Counted from the stretch's first letter, positions 1,935 through 56,486 are shown. The stretch: DNA of 64,000 bases from Pseudomonadota bacterium (GCA_040388075.1 JAZKCN010000002.1:35382-99381); one strand, 5' to 3'. Translations and numbers: made by a program. Notes: generated from the letters alone by a model not told the origin.

Positions 1935-3188
1935 ATGAATCAAGACCAACCCCCTGTGCCGGCCCCGTTCCAGGGAGCGGGTTCCGCACAATCCCTGCCA
2001 AAGTTACGTGTGCTCGTTGTCGATGACACCGAGGACAACCTGTTCCTGATGACAGGGCTGCTTGAAGACAAATATGACCTGTTGCTGGCGTCATCCGGCA
2101 AGGATGCCCTCGCCATCATCATGTCGCAAGCCCCGCCCGACCTGATCCTGCTCGACATCATGATGCCCGAGATGGATGGGTATGAGGTGCTGCGGCGCAT
2201 ACGCCAGCACCCGCCGACAGCCACCATTCCGGTCATCTTCCTGACAGCGCTCAGCACCATGGAAGAAGAGCAGCTCGGCCTGGACCTGGGCGCCGTGGAC
2301 TACATCACCAAGCCCATCAGCCCGCCCCTGCTTTTAACGCGGGTGCAATCACACCTGGAGCGCAGCGGTAACGCCAGGAGGCTGCTGGCCCTGTCGGAAA
2401 AGCTGTCGCGCTACCTCGCGCCACAGGTCTACCAGTCACTGTTTGACGGCTCGCAGCAGGCAGAAATACATACCGAACGGAAAAAACTCACCGTGTTTTT
2501 TTCCGACATCAAGGACTTCACGGGCTCCACATCGAAGTGGCAACCGGAAGACATTACACGACTGCTCAACAACTATTTCTCGGAGATGTCGCGCATTGCC
2601 GCCGAGTATGGCGGCACGGTGGACAAGTTCATCGGGGACGCCATGGTGATCTTTTTCGGTGATCCGCACAGCCTCGGCGTGAGGGAAGACGCGCTGCAGT
2701 GCGTCAAGATGGCCATCGCCATGCAACGCGCCATGGCCGACCTGCAGACGTTGTGGCGTGACACCGGGGCCGGCAAGTCCTTCCGCATCCGCATCGGCAT
2801 CAACACCGGCTTTTGCGATGTCGGCAACTTTGGCAGCGACCTGCGCATGGACTACACCATCATCGGCCCTGAAGTAAACCTGGCGGCGCGCCTTGAACAG
2901 GCCGCAGAGCCCGGCGGCATCCTGATATCAGGCGAAACCTATGCACTTGTAAAACACGACATTGAGACCGAACCCTCCGTGCCAATAGACGCCAAGGGGT
3001 TCTCGGAACCCATCACCGCCCATGCGGTACGCATCACCCCCGACACAGCGGATGGCGGCATACGGCAGTTGTTCCAGCGTGAGCTGCAGGGAATCAGCAC
3101 ACGGCTTGACCTCCAGGGAAGGCCGATCGCAGACCGCTCCATCGTGGCGGAAGAGTTGCGGGCCCTGGCGAACCGGCTCAGCACCTGA
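1935..3188 (+). CDS. Response regulator receiver fused to class III adenylate cyclase
   Basis: REC motifs VVDD, LLDIMMP, FLTA, ITKP; cyclase motifs [30 protein letters not shown]. Confidence 0.92.
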
Positions 3189-3202
3189 TCCCGGACCGCG
3201 AG

Positions 3203-6200
3203 ATGCGTGACGCTGTAAATAAACACCTCGGGCGCATACCGCTGCTGCAACGCCTGCTCGGACTTCCCTCACCCACCGAACGGGCCATGGCGCTCACCTT
3301 GCAGGCTCAGGAAAAGCACATCAAGCACCTGACGGCATCGCACACCTTCCTGAGCAATACCCTGAATTCGGCTCCCGATGGTTTGCTGGCCATCCACTTT
3401 GCCAGCGGCGCGAAATACATCAATCCACGCTTCACCGAAATGTGGGGAAAGGCGCCCGACGCACTCATGGCGCCCGGCCAGGAAATCGCCCTGATGACCA
3501 TGCACGCAACACTGGTGAAGGATGGCGCGCAGTTCATTGCCCGCGCCACGGAACTGTGGGCGCGCATGGACGGCGAAGTTTTCGACGAAATCGAGATGAA
3601 GGACGGCCGCCTCCTTGAGCGGGTCATCACCCCCGTCGAGTCCAACGGCAAACGCACGGGCCTGATCTTCAACTTCCGCGATGTGACCGAGCGCAGCCGC
3701 GCCGAGCGCAAGATACTGTTCAACCGGCTGGTGGTTGAAAACTCGGGGCCGCTGTTCTGGCTGGACCCGGTCGAGCGGCGGGTGGTTTATGCCAACAAGG
3801 CCGCCTGTGAAGAACTCGGGTATCCCATCGAGGAGTTTGTCGGGCTGGAGCTGTCGGTTCTTGACGTCGATACCAGCAACGAAGCCGTAGAGAAAATCAA
3901 GGCCGACCTTGAAGAATCCCCCAAACCCCGGCATTTCGAGAGCCGCTTTCGCTGCAGCGACGGCAGCCTGATTGATGTCGAAATCACAGTCTTCATGGCG
4001 CGGGATGAAGACCGTTCATTGCACGTTGCCGCGTTCAAGGACATCACTGAACAAAAACGTGCAGCAGAGGAAACACGAACGCAGCAAGCCACCATGACCG
4101 CGCTTATCAATGCGATTCCCGACCTCATCCACTACAAGAACCCACGCGGCTATTACCTGGGTTGCAACGAAGCCTTTGCGCAGGTGATCGGCCGCCCTGT
4201 CAACGACATCATCGGCCACAACGACCACGAACTGATAGACAAGGACTGGGCGGATTCGATTTACGCGCTGGACCAGGAAATCCTTGCCAGGGATGAAAAA
4301 CATTTACGCGAACACTGGGTTTATTACCGGGATGGCCGACAGGAGCTTTTTGAAACCGTAAAGGTGCCGTTCCGGAGCCAGAACGGGGCGCTTCTTGGCG
4401 TGATGGGCATAGGGCGCAACGTCACCCAGCGCAAGAAGACCGAGGATGAAGTGCGCCTGGCCAAAGAGGCAGCCGAGGAGGCAACACGGATGAAGTCGGA
4501 CTTTCTGGCCAACATGAGCCACGAAATCCGCACACCCATGAACGCCATCATCGGTATGTCATACCTGGCCCTCAAGACCGACCTCACGCCACGCCAGCGC
4601 GACTACCTTACGAAGGTGCAGAGTTCGGGCCAGCACCTGCTCGGCATCATCAATGACATTCTCGACTTTTCCAAAGTCGAAGCCGGCAAGCTGACGATTG
4701 AAAAAATGGATTTCGAGCTCGACAAGGTGCTCGACAACGTGGCCAATCTCATCAACGAAAAATGCAGCGCCAAAGGACTGGAGCTGGTCTTCAACATCGC
4801 GGCCGATGTGCCGCCCGCACTTGTCGGAGACTCATTGCGCGTGGGGCAAATCCTCATCAACTACGCCAACAATGCCGTCAAGTACACGGAGCGCGGTGAA
4901 GTGGTGATTGCAGCGCGCGTCCAGCAGCGCACAGCCCACGATGTGCTGCTGCATTTCTCGGTCAGCGATACCGGCATAGGCCTGACCGACGAACAGATCT
5001 CGCGCCTGTTCCAGAGCTTTTCGCAAGCTGACAGTTCCACCACGCGCAAATTCGGCGGCACAGGCCTGGGCCTGGCGATTTCCAAAAACCTGGCGGGGCT
5101 GATGGGCGGCGAAGTCGGCGTGACCAGCGTGCCTGGTTCCGGCAGCACGTTCTGGTTCACGATCAGGCTGGGCATCAGCACCCTGCCCCGGCGAGTGCTG
5201 CTGCCCAATCCCGACCTGCGGGGCCGAAGGGCGCTGGTCGTCGACGACAACGTGCATGCCCGCACTGTTCTGCGCGGCATGCTGGAGGGCATGACCTTCA
5301 GGGTAGACGACGTGGCGACCGGGGGTGCGGCCCTGCGCGCCCTGCAGTCTGCGCAAGCCAGAGGCGAACCCTTTGATATCGTCTACCTCGACTGGCGCAT
5401 GCCGAACATGGACGGCATGGAGACGGCCCGGCACATCCGCGCGTTGGGGCTGATACCCGACCCGATATTGCTGATGGTCAGTGCCCATGGCCGTGAGGAA
5501 ATGATTCACGAGGCAGAGTCGCTGGGCCTGACTGCTGTACTGGTCAAGCCCGTCAGTCCGTCCATGCTGTTTGACACCACCATGCAGGCGCTCGGCGAGG
5601 GACGCTCCGAAAGCCGCTTCGGCGCCCTTGGTGCTGCCACCGGTATCGAACAGCTCGAAGGCGTGCAGGGCGCACGCATCCTGCTCGCCGAGGACAACGA
5701 CATCAACCAGCAGATCGCCTGCGAACTACTGGAGGACGCCGGCTTTTCGGTCGAGGTGGCCGTCAACGGGCAGGTGGCACTCGAGATGGTTCAGCAGTCG
5801 CACTATGACCTTGTGCTGATGGACATGCAGATGCCGGTTATGGACGGCATTGATGCAACGCTCGCAATACGCCGCATCTCCCGTTTGCACGAGATGCCCA
5901 TTGTGGCCATGACGGCAAATGCCATGGCCGAAGATCGCCAGCGCTGCCTGGATGCCGGCATGAACGACTTCCTGTCGAAACCGATAGACCCGGACGGTTT
6001 GTGGCGCATGCTGATCAGGTGGATACCGGATCGCGGCACTGCGGGCAAAGTTCAGGACAACACAGCCTCCATGACGACAGGCCTTGAAACTGCGCTTGCA
6101 ACGGCCAGAACGCCAGCGGAAAGCAGCGGCCTGCCCGAAGGTATAGCCGGCCTCGATGTGCAGGCGGGCCTGTCGCATACGATGGGGAAGAAAACGCTCT

Positions 6201-6496
6201 ATATCGCGATGCTGCACCGCTACGTGACGGGTCAAAGGGACTGCCCCGACATCATCCGTCTGGCACTGGCGGCCGATGATGCGGCAACTGCGCAGAGGGC
6301 GGCTCACACGCTCAAGGGCGTGTCGGGCACGATAGGGGCAAAAAATGTGTCACTGCTGGCTGCTGCAGTCGAAACCGCCATCCGCGAAAAGCAGGACAGC
6401 GATCAGGTGGCGCAGGCCATCAGCGAACTGGCCGACCCGCTATCCGCATTGACGGCCACGCTGCACGCCTGGCTGGCCCTGCACGCCCCGGCCTGA
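3203..6496 (+). CDS. Hybrid sensor histidine kinase (PAS x3-HisKA-HATPase-REC-REC-HPt)
   Basis: [32 protein letters not shown], two REC domains (LDWRMP, LMDMQMP), HPt motif AHTLKG. Confidence 0.95.
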
Positions 6497-6519
6497 GGCG
6501 TGCAAACTGCGGCATCGCG

Positions 6520-7509
6520 TTATTCAGGCTTGATGTTCAGCTTGTCCAGCACGCCCTGCCACGTCCTGCGGTCCTGGTTGATGTACTGCACCAGTTGCTC
6601 CGGCGTGCCGGGGCGTGGGTAAGTGCCCAGTTCACGCGACTTGGCAATTACGTCCGGCATGCGCAGCACCTCGCCCATGTCCTGGTTCATCTTCGCGAGC
6701 TGGGCAGGATCCACGCCCTTTTTCGCGATCACGGCAAACCAGCCGTAAGCGACGGCGCCCGGCACCGTCGCGTTGGCCAGCGGGAATTGCTCCAGACCCG
6801 GTTCAACGCGGTCGCCCATGGAAGCCAGCACACGCATCTTGCCGCCCTGCACATTGCCGGCAACCACGTTGTAGGTCTCGACCATCATCTTGGTCTGGCC
6901 GCCCAGCGTCGCCTGCATGGCTTGCGCACCACCGGGGTAATGCACTTCAAGGAACTGCGCGCCCGACTGCAGGCCCAGCAAGGCAGAGGCGAGGTGCGGG
7001 GCGGTGCCGCGGCCGTTGTCGGCCACTTCAATGCTGCCCGGCCTGGCCTTGGCTGCAGCGATGAACTCGCCCAGATTTTTGTACGGTGAATCTGCAGGCA
7101 CGGTCAGCACAAAAGGCAGTACGGCCGCAAGCGTGACCGGCACGAAGTCCCGGCTGAAGTCGTAGTTCACGCCCTTGATGGTGCTCGGTGCAACAGAAAT
7201 GGCCGAACCCTGCACAAAACCGAACACGCTGCCGTCGGTCGGCGAGGTCAGGATGGTGTTCATGCCAATGACACCGCTGCCGCCCGGCTTGTTGTCGACG
7301 ATGACGGCCTGGCCCCACTTTTCAGTCAGCTTGACGCCGACCACACGGATCAGCACATCGGGTGCGGAGCCAGCAGGGAAAGGCACTACAAAACGCACAG
7401 GGGCGGTCGGCCATTTGGCGGCCGTCTGGGCCTGCGCCACCGGCCATGCGGCGATGGCCGCTGCGGCCAGAACCAAAGCCTTGCGGCGTGCCTTCAATAC
7501 TGAAATCAT
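6520..7509 (-). CDS. Bug/TctC tripartite tricarboxylate transporter substrate-binding protein
   Basis: VPFPAGSAPD, DNKPGGSG, signal peptide; CAGGAG RBS before ATG 7509. Confidence 0.9.
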   Translation of the reverse strand: MISVLKARRKALVLAAAAIAAWPVAQAQTAAKWPTAPVRFVVPFPAGSAPDVLIRVVGVKLTEKWGQAVIVDNKPGGSGVIGMNTILTSPTDGSVFGFVQGSAISVAPSTIKGVNYDFSRDFVPVTLAAVLPFVLTVPADSPYKNLGEFIAAAKARPGSIEVADNGRGTAPHLASALLGLQSGAQFLEVHYPGGAQAMQATLGGQTKMMVETYNVVAGNVQGGKMRVLASMGDRVEPGLEQFPLANATVPGAVAYGWFAVIAKKGVDPAQLAKMNQDMGEVLRMPDVIAKSRELGTYPRPGTPEQLVQYINQDRRTWQGVLDKLNIKPE

Positions 7510-7778
7510 CTTGTCTCCTGGTTGGTACTTGCTCAAAAAAACTTCAGGACTGCGCGAGTGATGCACGCAAAAAGTCCAGAATAAATCGATGATAGGCCAG
7601 CGCCGGACAGCGTGTCCATACGCCCGCATGAATGATGACCATTGATGCCGCAGATTGTGCCCTGCAGGAGGACGATCTTCGCAAGCAGAGCCGTGGAACA
7701 GGCTTCGCTGGGCCACAGGCGGGCGGCCCCTCGGGGGGCATGGCGCTACACGCAGTGAGCAACCGTGGGGGCCATATT

Positions 7779-8537
7779 TCAACGCAGGAAGCCGTCCCAG
7801 ACCAGCTTGCAGCCAGTCAGCAACATGCCCGCATACAGCAGCCGGTAAAACAGCACGGCACTCATTGTTTTGGCCATGCGCACGCCAACCCATACGCCCA
7901 ACGGCGCCAGCGGCATCAGCACCAGCGCGGTCACCATGTTGCGTGCATCAATCAGCCCCAGCCAGGCATACGGAATCCATTTGGACAGGTTGATGACAAA
8001 AAAGAAATAGGCCATCGTCGACGCAAAAACCAGCGGGGACAGGCGCATCGGTATCACGTAAAACGCCACCGGCGGCCCGCCCGCATGGGCGACAAAACTG
8101 GTGAAGCCGGAAGTCACCGTGAGCATGCCGCCCAGCCAGCGCGGCGGGTGCGGGCTGTCTTCACGCGGCGGAAACAGCAGGCGCTGCGCCAGAAAAATCA
8201 GGATCAGCACACCGACGATGCCGGCCACCATGCGCGCGTCCAGCACCTTGAACAACAGCGCACCAATGACGATGCCGAGCAGGCCAAAGGGCAGCAAAAA
8301 TTTGAGCAGTTTGAAGTCAACGCTCTTGCGAAAGGCCGCCAGCCCCAGCAGGTCTATCAGCAACAGTATCGGCATCAGGATGGCAGCTGCCTGCGGCACC
8401 GTGACGGCGAGCGCCATCAGCGGCGCGGCAAGCGAACCAAAGCCAGCGCCAAAGCCGCTCTTGCTGATGCCCATCAGCAGAACGGCAGGAATGGCGACCG
8501 CATAAAAAAACGGGTCGGTGATGACCGGGAAACTCAA
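7779..8537 (-). CDS. TauE/SafE family (sulfite exporter-like) membrane protein
   Basis: GISKSGFG, TSFVAHAGGPP, NLSKWIPY; multiple hydrophobic helices; TTG start. Confidence 0.85.
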   Translation of the reverse strand: MSFPVITDPFFYAVAIPAVLLMGISKSGFGAGFGSLAAPLMALAVTVPQAAAILMPILLLIDLLGLAAFRKSVDFKLLKFLLPFGLLGIVIGALLFKVLDARMVAGIVGVLILIFLAQRLLFPPREDSPHPPRWLGGMLTVTSGFTSFVAHAGGPPVAFYVIPMRLSPLVFASTMAYFFFVINLSKWIPYAWLGLIDARNMVTALVLMPLAPLGVWVGVRMAKTMSAVLFYRLLYAGMLLTGCKLVWDGFLR

Positions 8538-8558
8538 ACCGGCTGCTTTTCTTCAGAG

Positions 8559-8590
8559 CCCTCCCCTCGAGGGGAGGGTTGGGAGGGGGG
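8559..8590. repeat. Short GC palindrome CCCTCCCC-TCGA-GGGGAGGG with a G-rich tail
   Basis: Perfect 20-bp palindrome at 8559-8578 in the nitroreductase-tauE spacer; resembles proteobacterial CCCTCTCCC-type intergenic repeats. Confidence 0.6.
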
Positions 8591-8622
8591 AACGTCAGTA
8601 GCGCTGAAAGCGTGTTTCGTGC

Positions 8623-9213
8623 TCAAAGCACGGAACACGCTTGCTCGAACGACAGGCGCGGGTTACGGTCAAACAGCTTGCTGTTGTCACCGTAACCGAG
8701 GTTGATCAGAAAGTCGGTCTTGAAACGGCCGTCCCGGAAAAACTCTGCATTGACCTTGGCCAGGTCCACGCCGCTCATCGGTCCGCAATCCAGGCCCACA
8801 GCGCGTGCGGCAATCATGAAATAGGTACCACCCATGGTGCCGTTGCGCACGGCGGTGCCGCCAGCCATGGGCGCATTGCCTTCGAACATTTCCTTCGCGC
8901 CCGGCTTGTGCCAGACCTCGGGCATGTGTTCAAAAAAGCGGGTGTCGTGGGCGACGATGACGGTGACCGGCGCTTCGCGGGTCTTGTCGAGGTTGCCGGG
9001 TGACAGCGCTGGCAGCAGGCGTGCACGCGACTCGGCGCTGTTCAGGAAGACATAACGCGCAGGCTGCGTGTTCATGGATGTCGCACCCATCTTGGCGATG
9101 TCATAAACCTCTTTCAGCAGTTCCAGCGGAACCGGCTTGTCAATAAAACCGTTAGCCGTGCGGGCCTTCAGGAACAGCTGGTCCAGGCAGGCCTGGGCAA
9201 TTTTTGTCGTCAT
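8623..9213 (-). CDS. rutE: Nitroreductase family, RutE/YcdI-like (malonic semialdehyde reductase-like)
   Basis: LFLKART, GATSMNTQPARYVF, GLDCGPMSG, LINLGYG, RNPRLSFEQAC. Confidence 0.8.
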   Translation of the reverse strand: MTTKIAQACLDQLFLKARTANGFIDKPVPLELLKEVYDIAKMGATSMNTQPARYVFLNSAESRARLLPALSPGNLDKTREAPVTVIVAHDTRFFEHMPEVWHKPGAKEMFEGNAPMAGGTAVRNGTMGGTYFMIAARAVGLDCGPMSGVDLAKVNAEFFRDGRFKTDFLINLGYGDNSKLFDRNPRLSFEQACSVL

Positions 9214-19529: not shown

Positions 19530-19638
19530 ATGTAAAGCATGCTTTACATCAAGGCCGATTTGCAGGTTTGCAGACCGTTCCAGAGGCTTGCAAAGGCATC
19601 AAAAAGCCCGGGAAAGGCCTTTTTTGACCATAAAAAAG
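19530..19638 (+). repeat. 158-bp dispersed element, copy A, left part (split by the IS1595 element)
   Basis: ATGTAAAG-CATG-CTTTACAT palindrome plus A/T-tract core; joins 22510-22558 to give 158 bp. Confidence 0.85.
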
Positions 19639-19651
19639 GCGAAGTATGTAT

Positions 19652-19679
19652 TTGACAAACCCTAATAAATAGGGATAAT
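19652..19679 (+). promoter_or_regulatory. Putative sigma70 promoter of the transposase
   Basis: TTGACA (19652-57, inside the left TIR), 16-bp spacer, GATAAT (19674-79); ATG follows at 19703. Confidence 0.6.
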
Positions 19680-19702
19680 AGAGCCATTCCCGAAAGAAAC
19701 AA

Positions 19703-20635
19703 ATGGCCGCAATATTCGAACACCCCCACTTCCAAGACGCAGACGCAGCACGCGCTTATCTGGAAAACCTCCGCTGGGCCAATGGTGTTGTCTGCCCTCA
19801 TTGCGGCGTTATCGGTGGTCATTACGAACTCAAGGGCAAGTCAACCCGCCCCGGTGTTTACAAGTGCGGCGCTTGCTCTGACCAGTTCACCGTTACTGTC
19901 GGCACCGTGTTTGAGCGCTCAAAAATCAAGCTGCACATCTGGCTTCAAGCTGTTCACCTGATGAGCGCTAGCAAAAAGGGCGTCTCTGCCAAGCAGATCG
20001 AGCGCATGTTGGGCGTGTCTTACAAGACTGCATGGTTCATGTGCCATCGCATCCGTGAGGCCATGACTCCAGACCACACCACCAGCGGCCCTATGGGCGG
20101 CCCTGACACCATCGTTGAAGCCGATGAAACCTATTGGGGCAATCTGTACAAGGCCCGTGCAGGTTCCGGCCACAAGATGAAGGTTGTTTCCCTTGTCGAG
20201 CGTGAGTCAGGCCAAAAGCGTTCTTTCCACGTTGCCAATGTGACCTCTGAAACCGTGGGCGCTGTTCTGAAATCACAAGTGCATCCAGACACGCACCTGA
20301 TGACCGACGAATCAGCCGTTTACAAGCGCGTAGGTAAAGAGTTTGCCGCTCACAGCACTGTGAACCACGGCAAGAAAGAATATGCCCGTGGCAACGTCAC
20401 CAGCAACACCGTAGAGGCTTCATTCGCTATCTTGAAGCGTGGCCTTAACGGTACTTTCCACAGCGTCTCAGAGCGCCATCTGCAACGCTACGCTAACGAG
20501 TTCGACTTTCGCTGGAATTTTCGCTCTGCCAACGGCTTTGATGACGTTATGCGTGCTGATGCAGCGCTCAAGGGTATCGCAGGCAAGCGCCTCACGTATC
20601 GGCGGACTAGTGGGCAGCAAGAAGCCCACGCTTGA
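19703..20635 (+). CDS. IS1595 family DDE transposase
   Basis: Zn ribbon CPHC..CGAC, VEADETYW, LMTDE, NTVEASF, C-terminal GKRLTYR. Confidence 0.95.
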   Translation: MAAIFEHPHFQDADAARAYLENLRWANGVVCPHCGVIGGHYELKGKSTRPGVYKCGACSDQFTVTVGTVFERSKIKLHIWLQAVHLMSASKKGVSAKQIERMLGVSYKTAWFMCHRIREAMTPDHTTSGPMGGPDTIVEADETYWGNLYKARAGSGHKMKVVSLVERESGQKRSFHVANVTSETVGAVLKSQVHPDTHLMTDESAVYKRVGKEFAAHSTVNHGKKEYARGNVTSNTVEASFAILKRGLNGTFHSVSERHLQRYANEFDFRWNFRSANGFDDVMRADAALKGIAGKRLTYRRTSGQQEAHA

Positions 20636-20697
20636 TAGCCTGCTAACCCTCCTGATGAGGCTTGACATCAAGCCTTAAAACCGTGTGGGCTTGAATA

Positions 20698-20725
20698 TTG
20701 CTTTGTTAGGCATACCTAATATAAT
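20698..20725 (+). promoter_or_regulatory. Putative passenger-gene promoter with an overlapping palindrome
   Basis: TTGCTT-16 bp-TATAAT; TTAGG-CATA-CCTAA (20706-20719) in the spacer. Confidence 0.5.
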
Positions 20726-20775
20726 GAATGGCTACTGAGCAGCTTGTCCAACCCGTCTTTGAAAGGAGCCTCGCC

Positions 20776-21249
20776 ATGGAAACTAGCGATACATCTCCCG
20801 CAGGCTTGGCACATCTGTATCTCGCTCGTTATTGGGATGGCAACCTCCCTGTTAACCCCAAGAAAATCGCTGAAGATCTTTCTCTTGAAGTTATACCTAT
20901 GTATGGCTGGGAATTCAGCGGATATTACGACCCATCTTCAAAGCATATTCTTTACAACGGAGATGAGCATCTTGTGAGGCGTCGCTTCACGATTGCCCAT
21001 GAGCTTGGGCATTTCGCGTTGAAACATCCAGCTGCACCGCGTGACAAGTTGGATAGCTTTTCAGCATCTATCCGGTCGCCGATTGAATCTGCTGCCAATA
21101 GATTTGCGGCGGAGCTTCTCATGCCGAAAGAGTCGGTAAGAATTGTTGCCCGTGCGCGGGGGATGTCATCCGTAGATGAAATGGCACAGGCATTTGGCGT
21201 GTCAAAGTTGGCGATGGCATTTCGCTTAAACAATCTGAAGCTTGACTAA
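20776..21249 (+). CDS. ImmA/IrrE family (peptidase M78) metallopeptidase
   Basis: RRRFTIAHELGH (HExxH), ESAANRFAAELLMP, AFGVS..AM..RL; AAGGAG RBS 7 nt before ATG 20776. Confidence 0.9.
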   Translation: METSDTSPAGLAHLYLARYWDGNLPVNPKKIAEDLSLEVIPMYGWEFSGYYDPSSKHILYNGDEHLVRRRFTIAHELGHFALKHPAAPRDKLDSFSASIRSPIESAANRFAAELLMPKESVRIVARARGMSSVDEMAQAFGVSKLAMAFRLNNLKLD

Positions 21250-21647
21250 TGAGTGCCGTTCCGCCTGATGATCTAAGTGGCGATGGCAACCCGGACCAAA
21301 GCGTTATAGACAACGCTAACGCAGCCCTTCGTGATCAGAAATGGCGGTCTACTTATAGAACAGTTGCCACTCTTTGCGCTGTACTTGTGATGGGGTTGCT
21401 TGGCTTACTTCTTTACGCGCTGATATGCGCAGTTACCAATGAACTATCGCGTGTGAACAATGCGGTGGTCGCTGTGGTTGCGTCTCTTGTCATTGCTATT
21501 ACCGTTCTAGCAATAGCATTGTTGCGCGCTACGTTTCAGTCTGCAAAAACCACCGATAAAGAATCGGAGTTCTCCCTGCCGAATATGGAAGTAATAAAGG
21601 CCCTGAGAGACGCCTTCGATTTAGTCATAAAAGGCAAAACCGGCTAA
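21249..21647 (+). CDS. Hypothetical two-TM membrane protein
   Basis: Two long hydrophobic segments; TAATG stop/start overlap with the peptidase gene. Confidence 0.7.
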   Translation: MSAVPPDDLSGDGNPDQSVIDNANAALRDQKWRSTYRTVATLCAVLVMGLLGLLLYALICAVTNELSRVNNAVVAVVASLVIAITVLAIALLRATFQSAKTTDKESEFSLPNMEVIKALRDAFDLVIKGKTG

Positions 21648-21668
21648 ACCCGCTCAGGCGGGTTTTTT
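21646..21668. terminator. Intrinsic terminator, possibly bidirectional
   Basis: AAACCCGC-TCAG-GCGGGTTT followed by a T run. Confidence 0.75.
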
Positions 21669-21788
21669 CTTGTCCGCTGGTTTCCCACTAGTCTTAGGCT
21701 TAGGCGGTGCGTCTAGCATCCGTTTAAGCACGTCATCAAACTTCGGAGATTCATCCGAGGGTGGGGGCTTAGGGGGAGTTTTTGTCAT
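21654..21788 (-). CDS. Possible 44-aa Pro/Lys-rich small protein (below the ORF-track cut-off)
   Basis: MTKTPPKPPPSDESPKFDDVLKRMLDAPPKPKTSGKPADKKKPA; its stop lies in the terminator hairpin. Confidence 0.45.
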   Translation of the reverse strand: MTKTPPKPPPSDESPKFDDVLKRMLDAPPKPKTSGKPADKKKPA

Positions 21789-22410
21789 GAGTCCTACCGA
21801 GGAAATGGTCGCATTCTATTTTGAGCTTGGGCTAGCAATCACACAATGGGCAAACGTAGAGTTAACTCTTTTCGAGGTTGCATCTGCTTGCATGAGCAAG
21901 CGGGATAGAAAACTTCTTGCACTTGGTTATTTCAATCTTGAAAGTTTTCGCGGGAAGTTGGACTTTGTTGATGGCGTAGTCGAGGGGAAAATCAAAACAA
22001 AAAATCCGCGAATTTATACCGAGTGGAGAACTTTGTACGACAAAACCAGCCAACTCTCTGTGACTAGAAACAAACTAGCTCACAACTCCGTTATGGGCTT
22101 CTTGAATGGTTCTGCAGGCCGACACATCGGCATAGTTCCGTGGATAACAAAAGACAACCCAAAGATCAAAAAGAAAGCCGCACCAGGAGTCGCACCTTCG
22201 GACGCCTTGTGCGTAAGAGACATTATTTCTTTCAGGTTCGAAGGCTTTCACACGCGGATGCGGATTGAAAACTTGGCTCACAAGATAGCCCGTAAGCCAG
22301 TGCCGTTTTCAAGACTCGCTCCACAACCAAATAGTCCCCCTCCGATTCACGAAATAAGCGCCCAGATGCGCGCAATGATTCAACCCCAGCGTCAATCATC
22401 TCGGGCGTAA
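21787..22410 (+). CDS. Hypothetical protein with a HEPN-like R-x4-H motif
   Basis: LGLAITQWANVE...EWRTLYDKTSQLSVTRNKLAHN; helical pattern; start 21787 or 21805 (GAGGA RBS before 21805). Confidence 0.55.
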   Translation: MSPTEEMVAFYFELGLAITQWANVELTLFEVASACMSKRDRKLLALGYFNLESFRGKLDFVDGVVEGKIKTKNPRIYTEWRTLYDKTSQLSVTRNKLAHNSVMGFLNGSAGRHIGIVPWITKDNPKIKKKAAPGVAPSDALCVRDIISFRFEGFHTRMRIENLAHKIARKPVPFSRLAPQPNSPPPIHEISAQMRAMIQPQRQSSRA

Positions 22411-22438
22411 TTTCAATGGGCGTGTCTGAATTCAGCAT
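22232..22438 (-). CDS. Possible small hypothetical protein (IEITPEMIDAGV...)
   Basis: 68-aa ORF reading inward from the right TIR; protein-like N-terminal 45 aa; overlaps the 3' end of the HEPN-like ORF. Confidence 0.4.
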   Translation of the reverse strand: MLNSDTPIEITPEMIDAGVESLRASGRLFRESEGDYLVVERVLKTALAYGLSCEPSFQSASACESLRT

Positions 22439-22509
22439 AATTCAGATATATTAGCGAAATCCAGCCAAACCGTTAGAGGGTTTGTTAGATACATACTTCG
22501 CTAAAAAAG

Positions 22510-22558
22510 GCCTGCAGCCCAATCTGGACTAACGCGACCAGCTATTAATTTGGTAGCA
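22510..22558 (+). repeat. 158-bp dispersed element, copy A, right part
   Basis: GCCTGCAGCCCAATCTGGACTAACGCGACCAGCTATTAATTTGGTAGCA aligns with positions 110-158 of copies B, C and D. Confidence 0.85.
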
Positions 22559-22634
22559 AAAACAACCCGGGTGTTGCCGTGGATTCACAATCAGCGCATG
22601 GCAGCCTGTCCCGGGCAGCGATTGAAAGGCAAGC

Positions 22635-23306
22635 ATGAACATCCTGATCTTTGGCGCGACCGGCATGGTCGGTCAGTCCGTGTTGCGTGAGTGCCTGGAG
22701 GCGCCTGACGTCGAGGGTGTGGTGGCGGTGGGCCGCAGCGCTACAGAAGTGCAGCACCCGCGCCTGAGCAACATCGTGACGCCCGACCTGTACGACCTCA
22801 GCACGATCGAGGGCCAGCTGTCGCCTTTCGACGCCTGCTTTTTCTGCCTGGGCGTGTCGTCAATCGGCATGAGCGAGGCCGACTACACCAGGGTCACGCA
22901 CGACCTGACGCTGAATGCAGCACGCCTTCTGGTCAAGGCCAATCCGCAGATGACATTCACCTACGTCACCGGCGCCAGCACCGACAGCAGCGAAAAAGGC
23001 AGTTCGATGTGGGCACGCGTGAAGGGCCGCACGGAAAACGAATTGATGGCACTGGGCTTCAAGGCCGCCTACATGTTCCGCCCCGGCATCATCCAGCCCC
23101 TGCACGCCGTGCGCTCAAAAACACTGGCCTACCGCGCAGCCTATGTCGTGGCCGCACCGCTGTTCGGCCTCATCAAGGCATTCAGGCCGCAGTCCATGGT
23201 GACCTCGGTAGAAGTCGGGCAGGCCATGCTGAGCGTGGCGCGCCATGGCTATGTGCGGCCGATTCTGGAGGTGACGGATATTCAGCAGGCTGCGCGGGTG
23301 GCGTGA
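22635..23306 (+). CDS. NAD(P)-binding Rossmann protein (epimerase/dehydratase, YraR-like)
   Basis: IFGATGMVG, FFCLG, WARVKGRTEN, FRPG. Confidence 0.85.
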   Translation: MNILIFGATGMVGQSVLRECLEAPDVEGVVAVGRSATEVQHPRLSNIVTPDLYDLSTIEGQLSPFDACFFCLGVSSIGMSEADYTRVTHDLTLNAARLLVKANPQMTFTYVTGASTDSSEKGSSMWARVKGRTENELMALGFKAAYMFRPGIIQPLHAVRSKTLAYRAAYVVAAPLFGLIKAFRPQSMVTSVEVGQAMLSVARHGYVRPILEVTDIQQAARVA

Positions 23307-23351
23307 AGGCTGGCGGCCAAGGCCCCGAGCTACATTTCCCCGCGTATTTGG

Positions 23352-23741
23352 CTAACCGTCTGCACCGTCCTTGCGCGCCTTGCGGGTTGCCGGGGTCTCC
23401 CATTCCACCGCCCTGAAAGGCGAATCTTTTCGGGCTGACGGATTAGGCGGCGTCTCAAGCGCCGTACGCGACTTCTGCTCGATCACGAGCCGTTCCGCCG
23501 ATTTGTCGCTCGTGCGCCTGGCGCGCGGGCGCACCGCAGCCTCGTCAGTTTCCGGGTAGCCGTGTCGCATGTCGGCCGTATAGCGCCAGGTCAGAAAATC
23601 ATCGATTCCGGGGCGTTTTCCCTCGCCCAACTCATACGCTGCAATCTGGTTGAGCAGCTGACTGCAGCGGGATTCGTTCTCGATATCGGCCAGCTCCTGC
23701 GCAATGGCAAACTCCAGCCTCCCGAGCTTTTCGCTCTTCAT
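23352..23741 (-). CDS. Hypothetical protein
   Basis: 129-aa ORF with a strong AGGAGGT RBS 6 nt before ATG. Confidence 0.6.
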   Translation of the reverse strand: MKSEKLGRLEFAIAQELADIENESRCSQLLNQIAAYELGEGKRPGIDDFLTWRYTADMRHGYPETDEAAVRPRARRTSDKSAERLVIEQKSRTALETPPNPSARKDSPFRAVEWETPATRKARKDGADG

Positions 23742-23951
23742 AAGATCACCTCCTGTATTTTTATGGAGGTACTTTAGCCAGCGGTTTCGCGCTTTCCTAT
23801 GTCAATTTTCGAACGCGAATGTAGGATTTTTTTGACACTGCGGGCCAGAATTTGGGAAACATCCAGATGCATCAGAGCTGGCAAAGCTCCTGTCGCGATA
23901 ACCCGTCAAAGGAGTGCATCCCCGCAGCCGCCCACTGAAGCTGACGCAAGA

Positions 23952-24245
23952 TCAAACCTTGCGCGGGTCCCGCGGGATCCAGTGTTTGACGCTACCGTCG
24001 TTCGCCGTGAATGCTGCGAAGGCTGCATCGGCCAGAACCTGGCGGCCCGCCGGGGTTAATGCCAGCACCCTCGCGCTGTCGATTTTTTTGCTGACCTTGT
24101 AGACCAGGGTCAACAACAAGCCAGCCTCGCGCAAGGCCTTGATGTCCATGACCCTGGCTTGTTCAGTGATGGTGACGGGCAGGGGCAACGCTGCCAGTTC
24201 GCGCAGCAGCTCAAGGTCGAGTCCATGGGTAACGGTGTTTGCCAT
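23952..24245 (-). CDS. Small hypothetical protein (possible winged-helix-like)
   Basis: LELLRELAALPLPVTIT..IKALREAGLL..ARVLALTPAGRQVL; start chosen at MANTV. Confidence 0.55.
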   Translation of the reverse strand: MANTVTHGLDLELLRELAALPLPVTITEQARVMDIKALREAGLLLTLVYKVSKKIDSARVLALTPAGRQVLADAAFAAFTANDGSVKHWIPRDPRKV

Positions 24246-24471
24246 GCGCAGCAGATTGCGGCACTGGCGTGGCACTCAAGTTCCGGGTGTGTAAATCACA
24301 CGCAAAGTCTGCCTGTTTCCTACAAAAGCATGGAGGACAGAAGCGTGATCTCAAGTTGCAGTGGACCAGTTTCCCACCGCTGCTTACAAGGGAAAGTTGT
24401 GCTGGCTTCAAGCCGGCACTTTTTTGTCAGGTAGGCGAAGAAAGTGTCACGAGGGCGCTTGCCAATGCGTA

Positions 24472-24493
24472 ATTGTAGGAAATTACCTACAAT
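24472..24493. promoter_or_regulatory. Palindrome ATTGTAGG-N6-CCTACAAT in a divergent promoter
   Basis: Perfect 8-bp arms between the hypothetical gene (-) and the GAF gene (+); regulator unknown. Confidence 0.5.
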
Positions 24494-24584
24494 ACATATC
24501 GGATGAATAGCCATAGACAACAGCGGTTCGTACCAAGGAAGCCGGCCAGGTTTTTCTGTTCATTCGCCAACTCGAAGGTGCCCC

Positions 24585-25250
24585 ATGGAAACATTCGCTG
24601 TCGATCTCGCCGAAGTCCCCGCGCCGGTCCACAAGGTCATTGCCAATCGTCTTCTGGCAGAGCGGCCGTCACGCACGCCCGACTACAAGTCTGAAGTCGA
24701 AGCCACCACTGAGGTCATCAAGGCACTGCGGGAAACACCGGGTACGGTGTTAAAGAAGCTTTCGGATGCAGTCAGGACGCTGACCAATGCCGACTCTGCT
24801 GGCGTCAGCTTGTCAGGGCGTGATCAGGGCAAGCAGATTTTTCTGTGGCAAGCGGCTGTTGGACTATTCGAGAAGTATCTCGGCAGCGTGGTTCTTCATG
24901 AAGAAAGCCCTTGCGGCTGTGTGCTCGAAACCGACTCGACGCTGTTGATGGTGAATCCTGGAGACGCGTATAAAACCGCCGCCCAGGTGCAGCCTCCGAT
25001 TCGTGAAGTCCTGCTGGTCCCGTTTCACGTTGAAGGCCGGGTAGCGGGGACGGTGTGGGTCATCTCACAATCGGCAAAAACTTTCGATGCTGAAGACGCG
25101 CGTATCGTCAAGAACATTTCAGAGCTGGCTGCACTGGCCTACCAGACACTGATCAAACTCGACAACCTTGAGTTGCTAAGCAAGACAGTGCAGCTGGTCG
25201 CCGACGATCAGTTCAAGGAGCGCGAGCTCGTTTTCACGGCACGCAATTAG
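24585..25250 (+). CDS. Stand-alone GAF domain protein
   Basis: ADSAGVSL, ESPCGCVLE, EVLLVPF..VAGTVWVIS...FDAEDARIV. Confidence 0.8.
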   Translation: METFAVDLAEVPAPVHKVIANRLLAERPSRTPDYKSEVEATTEVIKALRETPGTVLKKLSDAVRTLTNADSAGVSLSGRDQGKQIFLWQAAVGLFEKYLGSVVLHEESPCGCVLETDSTLLMVNPGDAYKTAAQVQPPIREVLLVPFHVEGRVAGTVWVISQSAKTFDAEDARIVKNISELAALAYQTLIKLDNLELLSKTVQLVADDQFKERELVFTARN

Positions 25251-25337
25251 ATAGTCCTCGCGCCCCTGACAAAGAGGCGTGGAGATGCAGAACCTGCAAC
25301 AGGCCTGCCTTGAGCGACAAAATGCAGCAACCTCGAA

Positions 25338-25495
25338 ATGTAAAGTCTACTTTACATCGACTTGCTTTAATGGGTTCGGAATGCGCCGCGATGGCGTCCT
25401 GAAGCTCTGAAAAGCCCAAAAAAAGCCATTTTTGACCATCAAAAAGGCCTGCAACCCAATGTGGACTAGCGCCACCTGCTACTGATTTGGTAGCA
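25338..25495 (+). repeat. 158-bp dispersed element, copy B
   Basis: ATGTAAAG-TCTA-CTTTACAT ... ATCAAAAAGGCCTGCAACCCAATGTGGACTAGCGCCACCTGCTACTGATTTGGTAGCA. Confidence 0.88.
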
Positions 25496-25552
25496 CGTCA
25501 AATCCAGGCATCAGCGCACTAGTGGGCGGGCCTCAAGGCTGCGGTCATTCAA

Positions 25553-26611
25553 TCAGCCCGGCCGCATCCCGTCAAACGCATCCTGGAACAGCTGGCGTAT
25601 TGCCGTGCGCTCCAGCGGGCGCGGATTGGCGTACTGGTTTTGCATCGCGATATCGCAGGCCTTGTCGAGGTCCGCTTCCTTCATGCCGATGTCTTTCAAG
25701 GCAACCGGTGCGCCGTTGTTTTTGGCGAGGTCGTACACAGCCTGGGCGGCGTTGTTGCTGCCCAGTGCATCGGCCACCATCTGCATCGCCTGTGGCGCCG
25801 CGGCGGCGTTGTAGGCCAGTGCATGCGGCAAGACGATGGTGTGCGTTTCGGCATGCGGCAGGTTGAAGCTGCCGCCCAGTGTGTGGCACAGCTTGTGGTG
25901 CAGCGCCATGCCGACGTTGCCCAGCACCATGCCGCACAGCCAGGTGCCGTAGAGCGCGTCGCTTCGGGCCTGCATGTCATTGGGCGCCTTCCTGATGGCG
26001 GGCAAGGCGCGGCCCATCGCCGCTATGCCCTCTTTGGCCATCAGGTCCATCACCGGGTTGCTGTCGGTGGCGTACAGGCCTTCGGCGGCATGGGCAATCG
26101 CGTTGATGCCGCTGGTGATGCTCATGCCGACTGGCAGGCCGACGCTGAGTTCGGGGTCGTAAATCGTGGTGCGCGGCAACACGCGGGCGTCCTTGCCGGT
26201 CTTCTTGATGCCCGCTTCGGTGATGCCGTAAATCGGCGTCATCTCGGAGCCGGCATAGGTCGTGGGAATCGCGAGTATGGGCAAACCGGAATCCAGCGCA
26301 ATCGCCTTGCCGAGACCGGTGGTGGAGCCGCCGCCTATCGCCACCGCGCAGTCGGCACCCAGACGGTTGGCGACCTCCCGGGCTTCGCGTGCGGTCTCAA
26401 TCGGCACGTGCATCACCGCACGGTCGAACACACCGGCAGCGCGTGCGCCCAGCAGGTCGGCAACCATCTCGGCTGATTTGCGCTGTTCGGGCGTGGACAG
26501 CACGAGCGCCTTGGTGGCGCCGAGGAACTCAATCTCGCGCAGCAGGTGCTGCAGGCTGCCGGCACCGAACACCACACGCGAGGGCTGGCCGTTGTAAACA
26601 AAACTTTTCAT
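25553..26611 (-). CDS. Maleylacetate reductase (Fe-ADH family)
   Basis: RVVFGAGS, AVMHVP, GGGSTTGLGKAIAL, PTTYAGSEMT, NAIAHAAE, LHHKLCHTLGG, HAETH. Confidence 0.92.
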   Translation of the reverse strand: MKSFVYNGQPSRVVFGAGSLQHLLREIEFLGATKALVLSTPEQRKSAEMVADLLGARAAGVFDRAVMHVPIETAREAREVANRLGADCAVAIGGGSTTGLGKAIALDSGLPILAIPTTYAGSEMTPIYGITEAGIKKTGKDARVLPRTTIYDPELSVGLPVGMSITSGINAIAHAAEGLYATDSNPVMDLMAKEGIAAMGRALPAIRKAPNDMQARSDALYGTWLCGMVLGNVGMALHHKLCHTLGGSFNLPHAETHTIVLPHALAYNAAAAPQAMQMVADALGSNNAAQAVYDLAKNNGAPVALKDIGMKEADLDKACDIAMQNQYANPRPLERTAIRQLFQDAFDGMRPG

Positions 26612-41572: not shown

Positions 41573-41647
41573 GCGGCCATAGTTCAATGGATAGAACGGC
41601 CCCCTCCTAAGGGGCAGATAGGGGTTCGATTCCCTTTGGCCGCACCA
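41573..41647 (+). tRNA. tRNA-Arg (anticodon CCT)
   Basis: Acceptor stem GCGGCCA/TGGCCGC, anticodon arm GCCCC-CT-CCT-AA-GGGGC, GGTTCGATTCC T-loop, encoded CCA. Confidence 0.97.
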
Positions 41648-41939: not shown

Positions 41940-42056
41940 CCCCCCCCCCCTCTCGGCGCGAACATACCGCCGGGGTGTCGGGGTGCCGGGGTGCCGGGGT
42001 TCGGTAGGATTGACCAGCCAAGACATTGAATGACTGAATATGGAGGCCGAAAACCC

Positions 42057-43226
42057 ATGAATTTTGAGATCCCCGAAGAACTGCGGATGCTGCGTGAATC
42101 TGTACGACGTTTTGTAGACGAAGAGCTCATGCCGTACGAAAGCCGGTATGCGAACGATCCGGATATACCTGATGATTTGAGAAAGACCCTGCAGGACAAG
42201 GCGAAGGCACTCGGATTCTGGGCTTTTGACCTGCCCGAGGATGTGGGTGGCGGCGGCGTCGGCTATCTCGGCATGTGTGTGGTGATGGAGGAACTTGCGC
42301 GATGCACCGTTCCTTCGTTCCGCGCGCCGACTGTTTTCACACCGTACCTCGGTTCGGTTCTGTTTAGTTGCAATGCCGAACAAAAACAGAAGTATCTTCT
42401 TCCGGTTGTGCGCGGCGAGAAGCGAACCTGCTTTGCGCTGACGGAACCTAACGGCGGTTCCGATCCCTCGCAAATGAGGACAACGGCCGTGCGCGAAGGG
42501 GACAACTACCGGATCAACGGAAACAAGATTTTCATCACCGGCGCAGACAAGGCCGACTTCGTTCAACTTTTTGCACGCACCGGCGATGGGCAAAAAGGGG
42601 CAGCAGTCTCCTGCTTTCTTATTGATCGAGACACACCAGGCATGCGCCTGGGGCAAAATTTTGAGCTCATGTCACCTGACCGTCCGTGGGAACTGGTGCT
42701 GGACAACGTTCTGGTGCACGAAAGCCAGATGGTGGGTTCTCCGGGTCAGGGGTGGGAACTTGCAAGGAGTTTTCTGGACGTTGGCCGGTTAATCCACGGC
42801 CCCAAAGCGATCGGAAGGGCCGAGCGTGCGTTGGGCATGGCCATCGATTATGCAAAGCAGCGACATACGTTTGGCCAAGCACTATCGAACAGGCAGGCCA
42901 TTCAATGGATGATCGCCGACTCGGCAGTAGAGCTTCATGCAGCACGCCTGATGACTTATCACGCTGCCTGGAAAGCGGATCAGGGCCTGAACTTCCACGC
43001 AGAAGCATCCCAGGTCAAACTTTACGCCGATGACGTCTACATGCGAATTGTCGACAGGGCGATTCAGATCCACGGCGGGCTGGGCCTTTCCAGGGAACTT
43101 CCTCTCGAACTGATGTACCGGGATGCCAGAAGCCGCACCATCACCGAAGGCTCGTCCGAGATGCAAAGAACAATCATTGCAAAGGAGATGCTGGGCGGCA
43201 AATCTCCAATCAACCGATTCTCATGA
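42057..43226 (+). CDS. Acyl-CoA dehydrogenase family protein
   Basis: CFALTEPNGGSD, INGNKIFIT, RHTFGQAL..RQAIQ, QIHGGLG, ITEGSSEMQR; TGGAGG RBS. Confidence 0.93.
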   Translation: MNFEIPEELRMLRESVRRFVDEELMPYESRYANDPDIPDDLRKTLQDKAKALGFWAFDLPEDVGGGGVGYLGMCVVMEELARCTVPSFRAPTVFTPYLGSVLFSCNAEQKQKYLLPVVRGEKRTCFALTEPNGGSDPSQMRTTAVREGDNYRINGNKIFITGADKADFVQLFARTGDGQKGAAVSCFLIDRDTPGMRLGQNFELMSPDRPWELVLDNVLVHESQMVGSPGQGWELARSFLDVGRLIHGPKAIGRAERALGMAIDYAKQRHTFGQALSNRQAIQWMIADSAVELHAARLMTYHAAWKADQGLNFHAEASQVKLYADDVYMRIVDRAIQIHGGLGLSRELPLELMYRDARSRTITEGSSEMQRTIIAKEMLGGKSPINRFS

Positions 43227-43389
43227 AACGGATTTTTTGCGAATGCCACCGACTGCAACCCGACTAGACAGCGGAAGTCCAGAATGAACCTGGCAATGGC
43301 CAGGCGGAAAACCCAGGAAGTCGAAAAAGACCTGGTGGTGTGACAGACACGGCAGCCCTGGAAAAGCTGCCGGCTATCGCACAAGGGGA

Positions 43390-56293: not shown

Positions 56294-56328
56294 GGGGTTG
56301 AAGGCTGCAGGCCCTGGCTGAAGCGAGG

Positions 56329-56486
56329 CGCTACGCTTTTAGTAGCAGGTGGCGCTAGTCCAGATTGGCCTGCAGGCCTTTTTGATACCTGAAACAGGCC
56401 TTTTTTGGGCTTTTTGGCGGGTTTTCAGGCTTCCTGGCGACCTCCCAAGCATCGCAAGCAAACTCAATGTAAAGTCCACTTTACAT
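56329..56486 (-). repeat. 158-bp dispersed element, copy C
   Basis: Reverse complement ATGTAAAG-TGGA-CTTTACAT ... ATCAAAAAGGCCTGCAGGCCAATCTGGACTAGCGCCACCTGCTACTAAAAGCGTAGCG. Confidence 0.88.

Follow-up and report, generated by a model that had tools for sequence, protein, structure and literature searches.

The stretch of DNA analysed here (the window) comprises 64,000 nucleotides of a Pseudomonadota bacterium (GCA_040388075.1, JAZKCN010000002.1:35382-99381), and the subject of this work is a 2,863-bp element of the IS1595 family of insertion sequences (IS) at positions 19639-22501, delimited by direct reading and by a repeat search of the 64-kb window. Between its transposase gene (tnp) and its right end lie five intact open reading frames (ORFs), here called ORF2, ORF3, C1, ORF4 and REO (right-end ORF). 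Enclosed by the inverted ends and unrelated to transposition, these passenger genes make the element a transporter IS (tIS). Its insertion site is an A/T-run in an intergenic repeat that lies downstream of a gene for a LysR-type regulator, and the locus is present in one watershed-metagenome run. The features, in window coordinates, are as follows.

19560-19638, plus strand, with its right half at 22502-22580: interrupted intergenic repeat of about 100 bp, the target of the insertion, delimited by alignment with intact copies.
19631-19638, no strand: left copy of the target-site duplication (TSD), TAAAAAAG, identical to 22502-22509.
19639-19663, plus strand: left terminal inverted repeat (IRL), GCGAAGTATGTATTTGACAAACCCT, 23/25 complementary to the right one.
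19652-19679, plus strand: promoter-like site for tnp, with TTGACA (-35) within IRL, a 16-nt spacer and GATAAT, an 11/12 match.
19703-20635, plus strand: tnp, encoding an IS1595-family transposase of 310 amino acids with an N-terminal Zn ribbon and a DDE domain (Pfam, NCBIfam).
20776-21249, plus strand: ORF2, a stand-alone ImmA/IrrE (Peptidase_M78) metallopeptidase of 157 amino acids (Pfam, PADLOC and PDB matches).
21249-21647, plus strand: ORF3, a 132-residue protein whose two transmembrane helices (2-TM; about residues 38-62 and 69-93) precede an amphipathic tail at the C terminus.
21646-21672, no strand: G+C-rich hairpin (21646-21665) and T-run, resembling an intrinsic terminator, between ORF3 (plus) and C1 (minus).
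21654-21788, minus strand: C1, a basic, Lys/Pro-rich peptide of 44 amino acids (net charge +5) with the core FDDVLKRMLDAPPKPK and with homologues in sister elements.
21787-22410, plus strand: ORF4, a basic (net charge +13), all-alpha, HEPN-like protein of 207 amino acids, its R94-N95-x3-H99 motif encoded at 22066-22083.
22232-22438, minus strand: REO, an acidic protein of 68 amino acids (net charge -5) that contains the motif IEITPEMIDAGV; the gene is convergent with ORF4, the last 179 nt of which it overlaps.
22477-22501, minus strand: right terminal inverted repeat (IRR), 23/25 complementary to IRL.
22502-22509, no strand: right copy of the TSD, TAAAAAAG, read directly in the sequence.

There is very little doubt that this is an intact and recently transposed tIS of the IS1595 family. 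The inverted ends (19639-19663 and 22477-22501) are 25 nt long and occur in just these two copies in the window, where the chance expectation is zero, and the IRL core TATGTAyTTGACAAAC is common to 64 related elements. An 8-bp TSD next to inverted repeats is what the family leaves, and the transposase agrees with it in having both the N-terminal Zn ribbon (Zn_ribbon_IS1595, PF12760, E = 9.2e-15, residues 14-61) and the DDE domain (DDE_Tnp_IS1595, PF12762, E = 4.5e-35), and in covering the full NCBIfam IS1595 profile NF033547 (E = 2e-58; 198 bits, cutoff 75). Its relatives number in the thousands and measure 305-321 amino acids, the closest (89-93% identity) being found in Polaromonas and other Comamonadaceae. 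We take the stretches ADETY (residue 140), TDES (residue 201) and NTVEA (residue 235) to be the candidates for the catalytic DDE triad. A Zn ribbon has been found in every IS1595 group except IS1016 (PMC8101967).

Independent proof of the insertion comes from the target. Uninterrupted copies of the intergenic repeat, at about 25370-25520 (plus strand) and 56290-56440 (minus strand), continue unbroken across this point, where (T/C)AAAAAG is present only once, and so serve as empty sites. The repeat has a hairpin core composed of GGCC, a T-run, GACCAT, an A-run and GGCC, has three or more copies in the window, and is a host repeat of the repetitive extragenic palindromic (REP) or miniature inverted-repeat transposable element (MITE) kind, one copy of which was hit by the IS. 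No empty-site joint was present among the contigs of the source metagenome, a result that is uninformative because it covers contigs only. Assembler depth over 22384-22665 in the source run (X1) was about 6-8 times that of the remainder of the stretch, and several contigs end there. Whole-element DNA searches against plasmids (megablast) and phages (blastn) gave no match.

A preliminary description of this stretch, made from the sequence alone, had proposed the recent insertion of an IS1595-family tIS with a perfect 8-bp TSD, an uninterrupted transposase and an AT-richer cargo, and each of these points holds: ends, TSD, transposase, cargo and empty-site repeats concur, TAAAAAAG stands at both sides, the 310-residue transposase matches the complete family profile, and the cargo has a GC content of 0.48, compared with 0.552 in tnp and 0.60 and 0.59 in the flanks, being the lowest-GC 2-kb block in the window. 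The terminator placed behind the membrane-protein gene is likewise found, at 21646-21665 plus the T-run. Other statements need correction. The 25-bp inverted repeats described as intact are present and unique in the window, but they differ by two mismatches. The three cargo genes listed, for a peptidase, a membrane protein and a HEPN-like protein, correspond to the peptidase, the 2-TM protein and an RNxxxH protein, but the genes are five, C1 and REO having been overlooked. The promoter-like box attributed to the cargo does have a perfect -10 hexamer (TATAAT, 20720-20725), but it is weak, with a poor -35 (TTGCTT, 3/6), and is absent from the list produced by our promoter scan, in which the tnp site was the best of the region.

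Insertion sequences are usually viewed as a bare transposase between two ends. A transposase scan using one genome per species recovered 80 loci (designated by L and a number), 65 of which could be delimited through their inverted ends, and none of the delimited elements was a bare IS of about 1.1 kb. All 65 measure 1.9-3.7 kb and therefore carry cargo, amounting to 1-2.7 kb of extra genes. Members of this clade occur in alpha-, beta- and gammaproteobacteria, among them sister elements of Caulobacter sp. UC70_42 and Ramlibacter aurantiacus, and a perfect 8-bp duplication flanks 48 of the 65. Among the nearest relatives tnp shows 79-87% nucleotide identity, and DNA similarity ends with tnp and returns only at the terminator hairpin/C1 and at IRR; such a break after tnp indicates that the cargo was exchanged wholesale. 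The hairpin itself (AAACCCGCTCAGGCGGGTTTTTTC, about 30 bp) is kept at the DNA level in the nearest sisters (in element coordinates, 2048-2076 in L002, 2689-2718 in L003, 2830-2859 in L004 and 1627-1719 in L005), even where the neighbouring cargo is unrelated and C1 is absent, and may mark a point of recombination, or a boundary, in the exchange of cargo.

The cargo follows two layouts. Layout A, to which the window element belongs, consists of tnp, optional genes, a minus-strand C1 placed head-to-head with an ORF of 170-270 amino acids, and REO, antisense at the right end. Layout B consists of tnp, a partner gene, a toxin gene and a plus-strand C1 beside IRR, the toxin being either a PIN protein or an ORF4-like protein (L167, L168 and L170). 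The PIN cases comprise pairs of DUF433/HTH_66 and PIN_10 proteins as well as PIN pairs, and RefSeq labels one of these sister PIN proteins "type II toxin-antitoxin system VapC family toxin". A single-linkage cluster ("C2") was rejected as inflated, as N-terminal ORF extensions antisense to C1 had joined unrelated proteins, and the HEPN-like set was re-derived from the CATG start and the motif. The proteins of this set share 14-29% identity, against 53-91% for the transposases. C1, the HEPN-like protein and REO are near-standard equipment of the clade rather than a chance pickup.

C1 was first spotted through a similar small ORF in L001. Using tblastn and clustering, we found homologues in 51 of the 65 delimited elements, whatever the type of cargo, alongside both PIN and HEPN-like modules; C1 itself matched no Pfam family. 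Codon-position entropies across 44 distinct sequences were 0.94/0.64/1.55, and this concentration of variation at third positions shows C1 to be protein-coding on the minus strand; the same pattern led us to reject a conserved DNA or RNA site. C1 has a Lys/Pro tail, and an AT-hook-like GRKRGRP occurs in some homologues. In the window the ATG codons of C1 and ORF4 overlap by two bases in TCATGA (21785-21790), at a palindromic CATG. The same overlap was observed in 23 of the 31 elements with a minus-strand C1, the partner being the head-to-head ORF of 170-270 amino acids, and most of these CATG-paired ORFs bear R[NDH]xxxH at about residues 82-120. As the two starts are divergent and overlapping, the ribosome-binding sites and promoters of C1 and of the HEPN-like gene must lie within each other's gene.

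REO was found in 27 loci with a hidden Markov model and reads inward from IRR every time. Its codon-position entropies (0.85/0.77/1.50 across 22 distinct sequences) are a coding signature, and a Pfam scan gave no match. A HEPN-like ORF is present in 21 of 22 REO-bearing elements (Fisher p = 4e-8), and REO is absent from PIN-carrying elements. In many sisters (L040, L049, L051, L068, L077, L006 and L019) the REO start codon lies inside IRR, so that the transposase-binding end doubles as coding sequence; two examples are the right ends GTGACAAAGCAG, which reads M-T-K-Q, and ATGTACTTGACAAAC, which reads M-Y-L-T-N. The REO transcript may have to start outside the element.

ORF4 belongs to a large family. 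A word-indexed search gave just two homologues, and HMMER, run over the full set of 1.84 billion cluster representatives, gave 1,291 with E up to 1e-3, of which 116 had E up to 1e-30. Among the matches listed, the homologues are near full length, mostly of about 200 amino acids, and none has a name or a Pfam domain. A longer TTG start for ORF4 (21670) was rejected on homologue alignments and ribosome-binding sites. The invariant residues of the family are E6, W21, E25, F54, R55, K57, L58, W80, R94, N95 and H99, and R94, N95 and H99 are invariant in 80 sequences, with the polar residue that a HEPN motif has after its arginine. The family is homologous to other IS-borne RNxxxH proteins (hhalign probability 97.1%, E = 5e-11) and weakly similar to a third subgroup (55.6%, E = 1.2e-4, motifs aligned).

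HEPN proteins have been defined by an Rx4-6H motif in which a polar residue (N, D or H) follows the arginine and which lies at the end of helix 3, in a core of two alpha-hairpins that often contains inserts (PMC3710099). An AlphaFold2 model of ORF4 built on an 80-sequence alignment had a predicted local distance difference test score (pLDDT) of 94.4 and a predicted template-modelling score of 0.88, compared with a pLDDT of 57 from a 3-sequence alignment. It predicts long helices at residues 3-34, 38-68 (broken) and 74-99, the third closed by RNKLAH, followed by a beta-hairpin and loop and then by a helix at 143-167. This predicted topology appears to fit the HEPN definition. Profile matches of the family were weak (DUF6548, 1.5e-4; HEPN_RiboL-PSP, 0.039; HEPN_Swt1, 0.1), as was a match of one sister protein to CARF_HEPN/Csx1 (2.7e-4), and the best Foldseek match of the model in BFVD was an unnamed viral protein of 159 amino acids (E = 0.017, not significant). 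"HEPN-like" is thus a reasonable label for ORF4, based on the motif and on a predicted topology only, with membership of the HEPN superfamily not established.

In seven of the nine ORF4-family contexts that could be resolved, the gene lies in an IS1595 tIS (the window element, L001, L082, L086, L167, L168 and L170), and in two, L085 and L169, it lies outside any IS. In L085 (5683-7055) the homologue has an ORF of 90 amino acids before it and a Staphylococcal-nuclease-like gene after it, and HD-domain, HTH_17 and type I methylase genes belong to the same island. A sister tIS containing tnp, an ORF of 100 amino acids, an ORF4 homologue, C1 and REO is inserted between cinA and lexA-recA-recX in L082-L084 (4511-6742), the same insertion in three independent assemblies. 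The metagenome contig L170 has three IS1595-family transposase genes within 6 kb (2773-8663), each followed by different cargo, one consisting of an ORF4 homologue, C1 and REO and the next of ORFs of 229 and 50 amino acids; this contig is a case of tandem or nested tISs.

The optional genes of the window element, ORF2 and ORF3, were found in none of the other 80 loci. ORF2 matches Peptidase_M78 (PF06114, E = 7.6e-20, 71.4 bits against a cutoff of 22), has an intact HEXXH zinc motif (HELGH, residues 75-79, at 20998-21012) and is preceded by a strong AAAGGAG ribosome-binding site; an upstream start at ATG 20728 was rejected, since alignments with homologues, the ribosome-binding sites and the L088 gene call speak against it. 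Its best PADLOC matches were capP (6e-28) and RmrA (1e-15 to 1e-7), and in the PDB it matched IrrE and CapP (3.5e-6 to 7.5e-4). The start codon of ORF3 overlaps the ORF2 stop (TAATG); no family match was found for ORF3 in Pfam, PADLOC, NCBIfam or PHROGs, and tblastn of ORF3 and ORF4 against plasmids gave no match. At 40-43% identity, the closest homologues of ORF2 are without exception short M78 proteins that stand alone, and directly behind each comes a 2-TM protein of 120-205 amino acids with a similar amphipathic tail. We found such pairs in four settings: a Vibrio plasmid with icd-like genes and repL; a prophage, where the pair lies beside the portal gene, with an Ogr-like regulator on one side and portal/terminase genes on the other; a two-gene chromosomal islet; and a site beside metG.

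M78 peptidases of the ImmA/IrrE type usually have a partner of the XRE or helix-turn-helix (HTH) kind. The element contains no HTH ORF, nor do the closest ORF2 homologues, which have the 2-TM partner instead, and an upstream XRE gene occurs only at more distant M78 genes; for comparison, a bona fide CapH/CapP context of a cyclic-oligonucleotide-based antiphage signalling system (CBASS) was seen in L090. Judged by its settings, the M78 and 2-TM pair is an autonomous module; because the defining repressor partner is absent, it is not a switch of the ImmA/ImmR or CapP/CapH type. It resembles the ImmA/IrrE (COG2856) regulators in its HEXXH-bearing M78 domain, in its top matches to CapP and RmrA and in residing on a mobile element, and it differs from ImmA/ImmR, IrrE/DdrO, CapP/CapH of CBASS and RmrA of RosmerTA in that ORF2 is short (157 amino acids), is neither fused to an XRE/HTH protein nor next to one, lacks accompanying CBASS genes, and is instead translationally coupled to a 2-TM protein, like its closest homologues.

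The cargo is therefore made up of two separable modules, the clade unit (C1, ORF4 and REO) and an add-on M78 and 2-TM operon, and the genes of both are under purifying selection. Our best explanation of the whole, an intact tIS with a toxin/immunity-type unit plus a second conflict module, stands at an even chance, and we would put the toxin/immunity reading of the cargo itself just under that. ORF4 would act as a metal-independent ribonuclease (RNase) toxin of the HEPN type, and some product of the element itself would neutralise it. For this role REO is the strongest candidate: it is acidic, strictly linked to ORF4 within ISs, overlaps it in antisense and is read from the IRR side. It might act as a protein or through antisense transcription from that side. 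The charges of the two proteins (+13 and -5) are like those of a basic toxin and an acidic antitoxin. C1, present with every toxin type of the clade, would bind DNA as an accessory factor or regulator, and the three genes would form an addiction or abortive-type module penalising loss or silencing of the element, in a slot that PIN-toxin pairs occupy in sister elements. The M78 and 2-TM pair would be a second conflict module, with a protease as sensor or switch and a membrane protein as effector. It is possible, if rather unlikely, that the clade built the three-gene unit into the element as a new IS-embedded toxin/immunity system whose expression is wired to the ends, for instance with REO read from outside or from IRR; such a unit could couple survival of the element, or its choice of A/T-run (terminator-like) targets, to an RNase.

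The preliminary description had likewise proposed a minimal mobile defence or addiction module and had noted that some IS1595 members carry passenger genes, often for resistance; these points fare unevenly. The PIN/VapC pairs of the sisters, the prophage M78 pair and the CapP and RmrA matches speak for a mobile defence or addiction module, but ORF3 and ORF4 have no PADLOC match and the HEPN assignment has no significant profile or fold match behind it; the PADLOC check that had been suggested thus yielded CapP and RmrA for the peptidase but no model for the other two proteins. In place of a minimal three-gene module there are two separable ones, which include two small conserved genes. Passengers are indeed present throughout the clade, but their type is that of toxins, and no resistance gene was found among its clustered passenger ORFs.

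Several results weigh against a toxin/immunity unit. ORF4 had no match in Pfam, NCBIfam, PADLOC or PHROGs; PDB sequence searches with five profiles (A1, A2, A7, A8 and A9) returned chance-level matches only; and Foldseek of the ORF4 model against the PDB gave a best E of 2.1, with AbiV at 6.2, so that no significant profile or structural link to an established HEPN family was found. Neither small gene forms with ORF4 the two co-transcribed adjacent genes of a type II toxin-antitoxin (TA) operon, ORF4 and REO being convergent and overlapping and ORF4 and C1 divergent. The ORF4 homologues outside ISs (L085 and L169) lack both REO and C1, which weakens the case for REO as an obligatory antitoxin. 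Since C1 accompanies PIN and HEPN-like modules alike, it is no dedicated antitoxin; nor is it needed in cis, because elements without it still show fresh TSDs. The second module has no XRE/HTH protein as a substrate for its peptidase; ImmA/ImmR, IrrE/DdrO and CapP/CapH are all defined by such a partner. Finally, the locus is known from metagenome DNA contigs only.

The same cargo might primarily serve as an abortive-infection (Abi) defence against phages, in which M78 would sense infection and release the 2-TM effector, the HEPN-like RNase would be a second Abi effector, and the IS would spread them. The peptidase's top PADLOC matches (CapP at 6e-28, and RmrA), the presence of the M78 and 2-TM pair in a prophage between an Ogr-like regulator and portal/terminase genes and on the Vibrio plasmid with repL and icd-like genes, an ORF4 homologue in an island beside a type I restriction-modification methylase, and the frequency of HEPN domains as Abi effectors (PMC3710099) all point in this direction. 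However, no significant PADLOC model was obtained for ORF3, ORF4 or 22 diverse sister proteins, the trio moves with the IS in seven of nine contexts and not with defence islands, and the PIN/VapC-type pairs of the same slot are classical addiction modules. We regard a primarily defensive role as doubtful, and it is in any case compatible with the toxin/immunity explanation.

The toxin/immunity explanation also has to be set against one in which C1 and REO, perhaps together with the HEPN-like protein, are not passengers but assist transposition, through the choice of A/T-run targets, end binding or regulation of the transposase. C1 occurs in 51 of 65 elements irrespective of cargo type; the Lys/Pro tails and the AT-hook-like GRKRGRP of some homologues suggest binding to AT-rich DNA; the TSDs are A/T-rich relative to their flanks (65% against 36%); REO begins in or beside IRR; and the tnp promoter has its -35 inside IRL. 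Yet elements without C1, REO or a HEPN-like gene (for example L002, L004, L022, L034 and L061) retain perfect 8-bp duplications, PIN-carrying elements lack REO, and the HEPN-like proteins have diverged far faster than the transposases, as is typical of conflict genes, which makes this alternative improbable. It is scarcely credible that the additional ORFs are no more than inert hitch-hikers, or arose by chance in a composite element that is decaying. Only the peptidase matches an annotated family, and the cargo differs in GC from host and tnp, but all five ORFs, the ends and the TSD are intact, and the conservation data contradict inert DNA: C1 (44 sequences) and REO (22) vary mainly at third positions, and invariant residues are kept in the ORF4 family, whose full-length representatives number 1,291.

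The tIS concept is described in PMC3129680, citing Siguier, Gagnevin and Chandler 2009. The elements studied here share with IS1595 tISs the Zn ribbon and DDE_Tnp_IS1595 domains, the 8-bp TSD, the short ends and passengers located between tnp and the right end; they differ in that cargo is present in 65 of 65 delimited elements and is partly conserved, with a fixed, overlapping architecture. The ISNwi1 subgroup (ends "GGnnATTAT" in ISfinder), which has members with passenger genes, is the probable placement, and the relatives' ends GGnAATTATATACTTGACAAA resemble those of ISNwi1. In the literature searched, there was no description of a universal-cargo IS1595 clade with a slot dedicated to RNase-type toxins, nor of a fixed three-gene unit with overlapping starts and an antisense right-end gene. 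This suggests that, while IS1595 tISs are already known as a kind, the clade-wide toxin slot and its architecture are apparently new.

A precedent is given by the Tn3 family, whose transposition modules embed TA pairs beside the transposition genes, with toxins of the PIN, HEPN and ParE/RelE types; these pairs were acquired several times independently and have been proposed to act in maintenance or transposition (PMC7157771). Both cases would have RNase-type toxins inside a transposon. However, Tn3 belongs to another family with another mechanism and has recognisable type II operon pairs such as HEPN-MNT, whereas ORF4 has no known family and no MNT partner and is flanked by two small genes on the opposite strand. 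With the HEPN RNase toxins (HepT/MntA, RnlA/LsoA, AbiV and PrrC; PMC3710099), ORF4 shares the Rx4H motif with a polar residue after R, at the predicted end of the third core helix, a predicted all-alpha domain, a basic charge and a mobile or conflict context. It differs in the beta-hairpin and long loop between helices 3 and 4, in its C-terminal extension, and in having neither a significant profile or fold match nor a nucleotidyltransferase partner.

The slot beside the conserved 44-residue peptide holds putative RNase-type toxins, which are either PIN proteins or members of the large RNxxxH family, so far unnamed and counting no fewer than 1,291 cluster representatives. Should they prove to be toxin/immunity units, TA-like addiction or abortive defence would be part of routine IS biology, much as proposed for transposons of the Tn3 family, and three protein families now without annotation would gain names and testable functions. 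The M78 and 2-TM pair would add a further compact candidate conflict module that moves among IS, prophage, plasmid and chromosomes.

The insertion sites of the clade share a composition. Across 48 related elements the TSDs are 65% A+T, compared with 36% in the 500-bp flanks, and 18 of the 48 contain at least five A or five T; TTTCTTTT was found twice, and TTTTTTTT, AAAAAAAG and CTTTTTTT were also present. This strong A/T-richness suggests that T-runs, such as the tails of terminators, may be targeted by these elements.

Two further regions of the window depart from its mean GC content of 0.605. A lower-GC stretch lies at 23600-25000 (0.51-0.61 in 300-bp windows), and the 2-kb blocks spanning 22001-26000 have values of 0.568 and 0.570. 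The region 42000-44000 (0.567), just downstream of a tRNA-Arg(CCT) gene at 41573-41647, may be an island.

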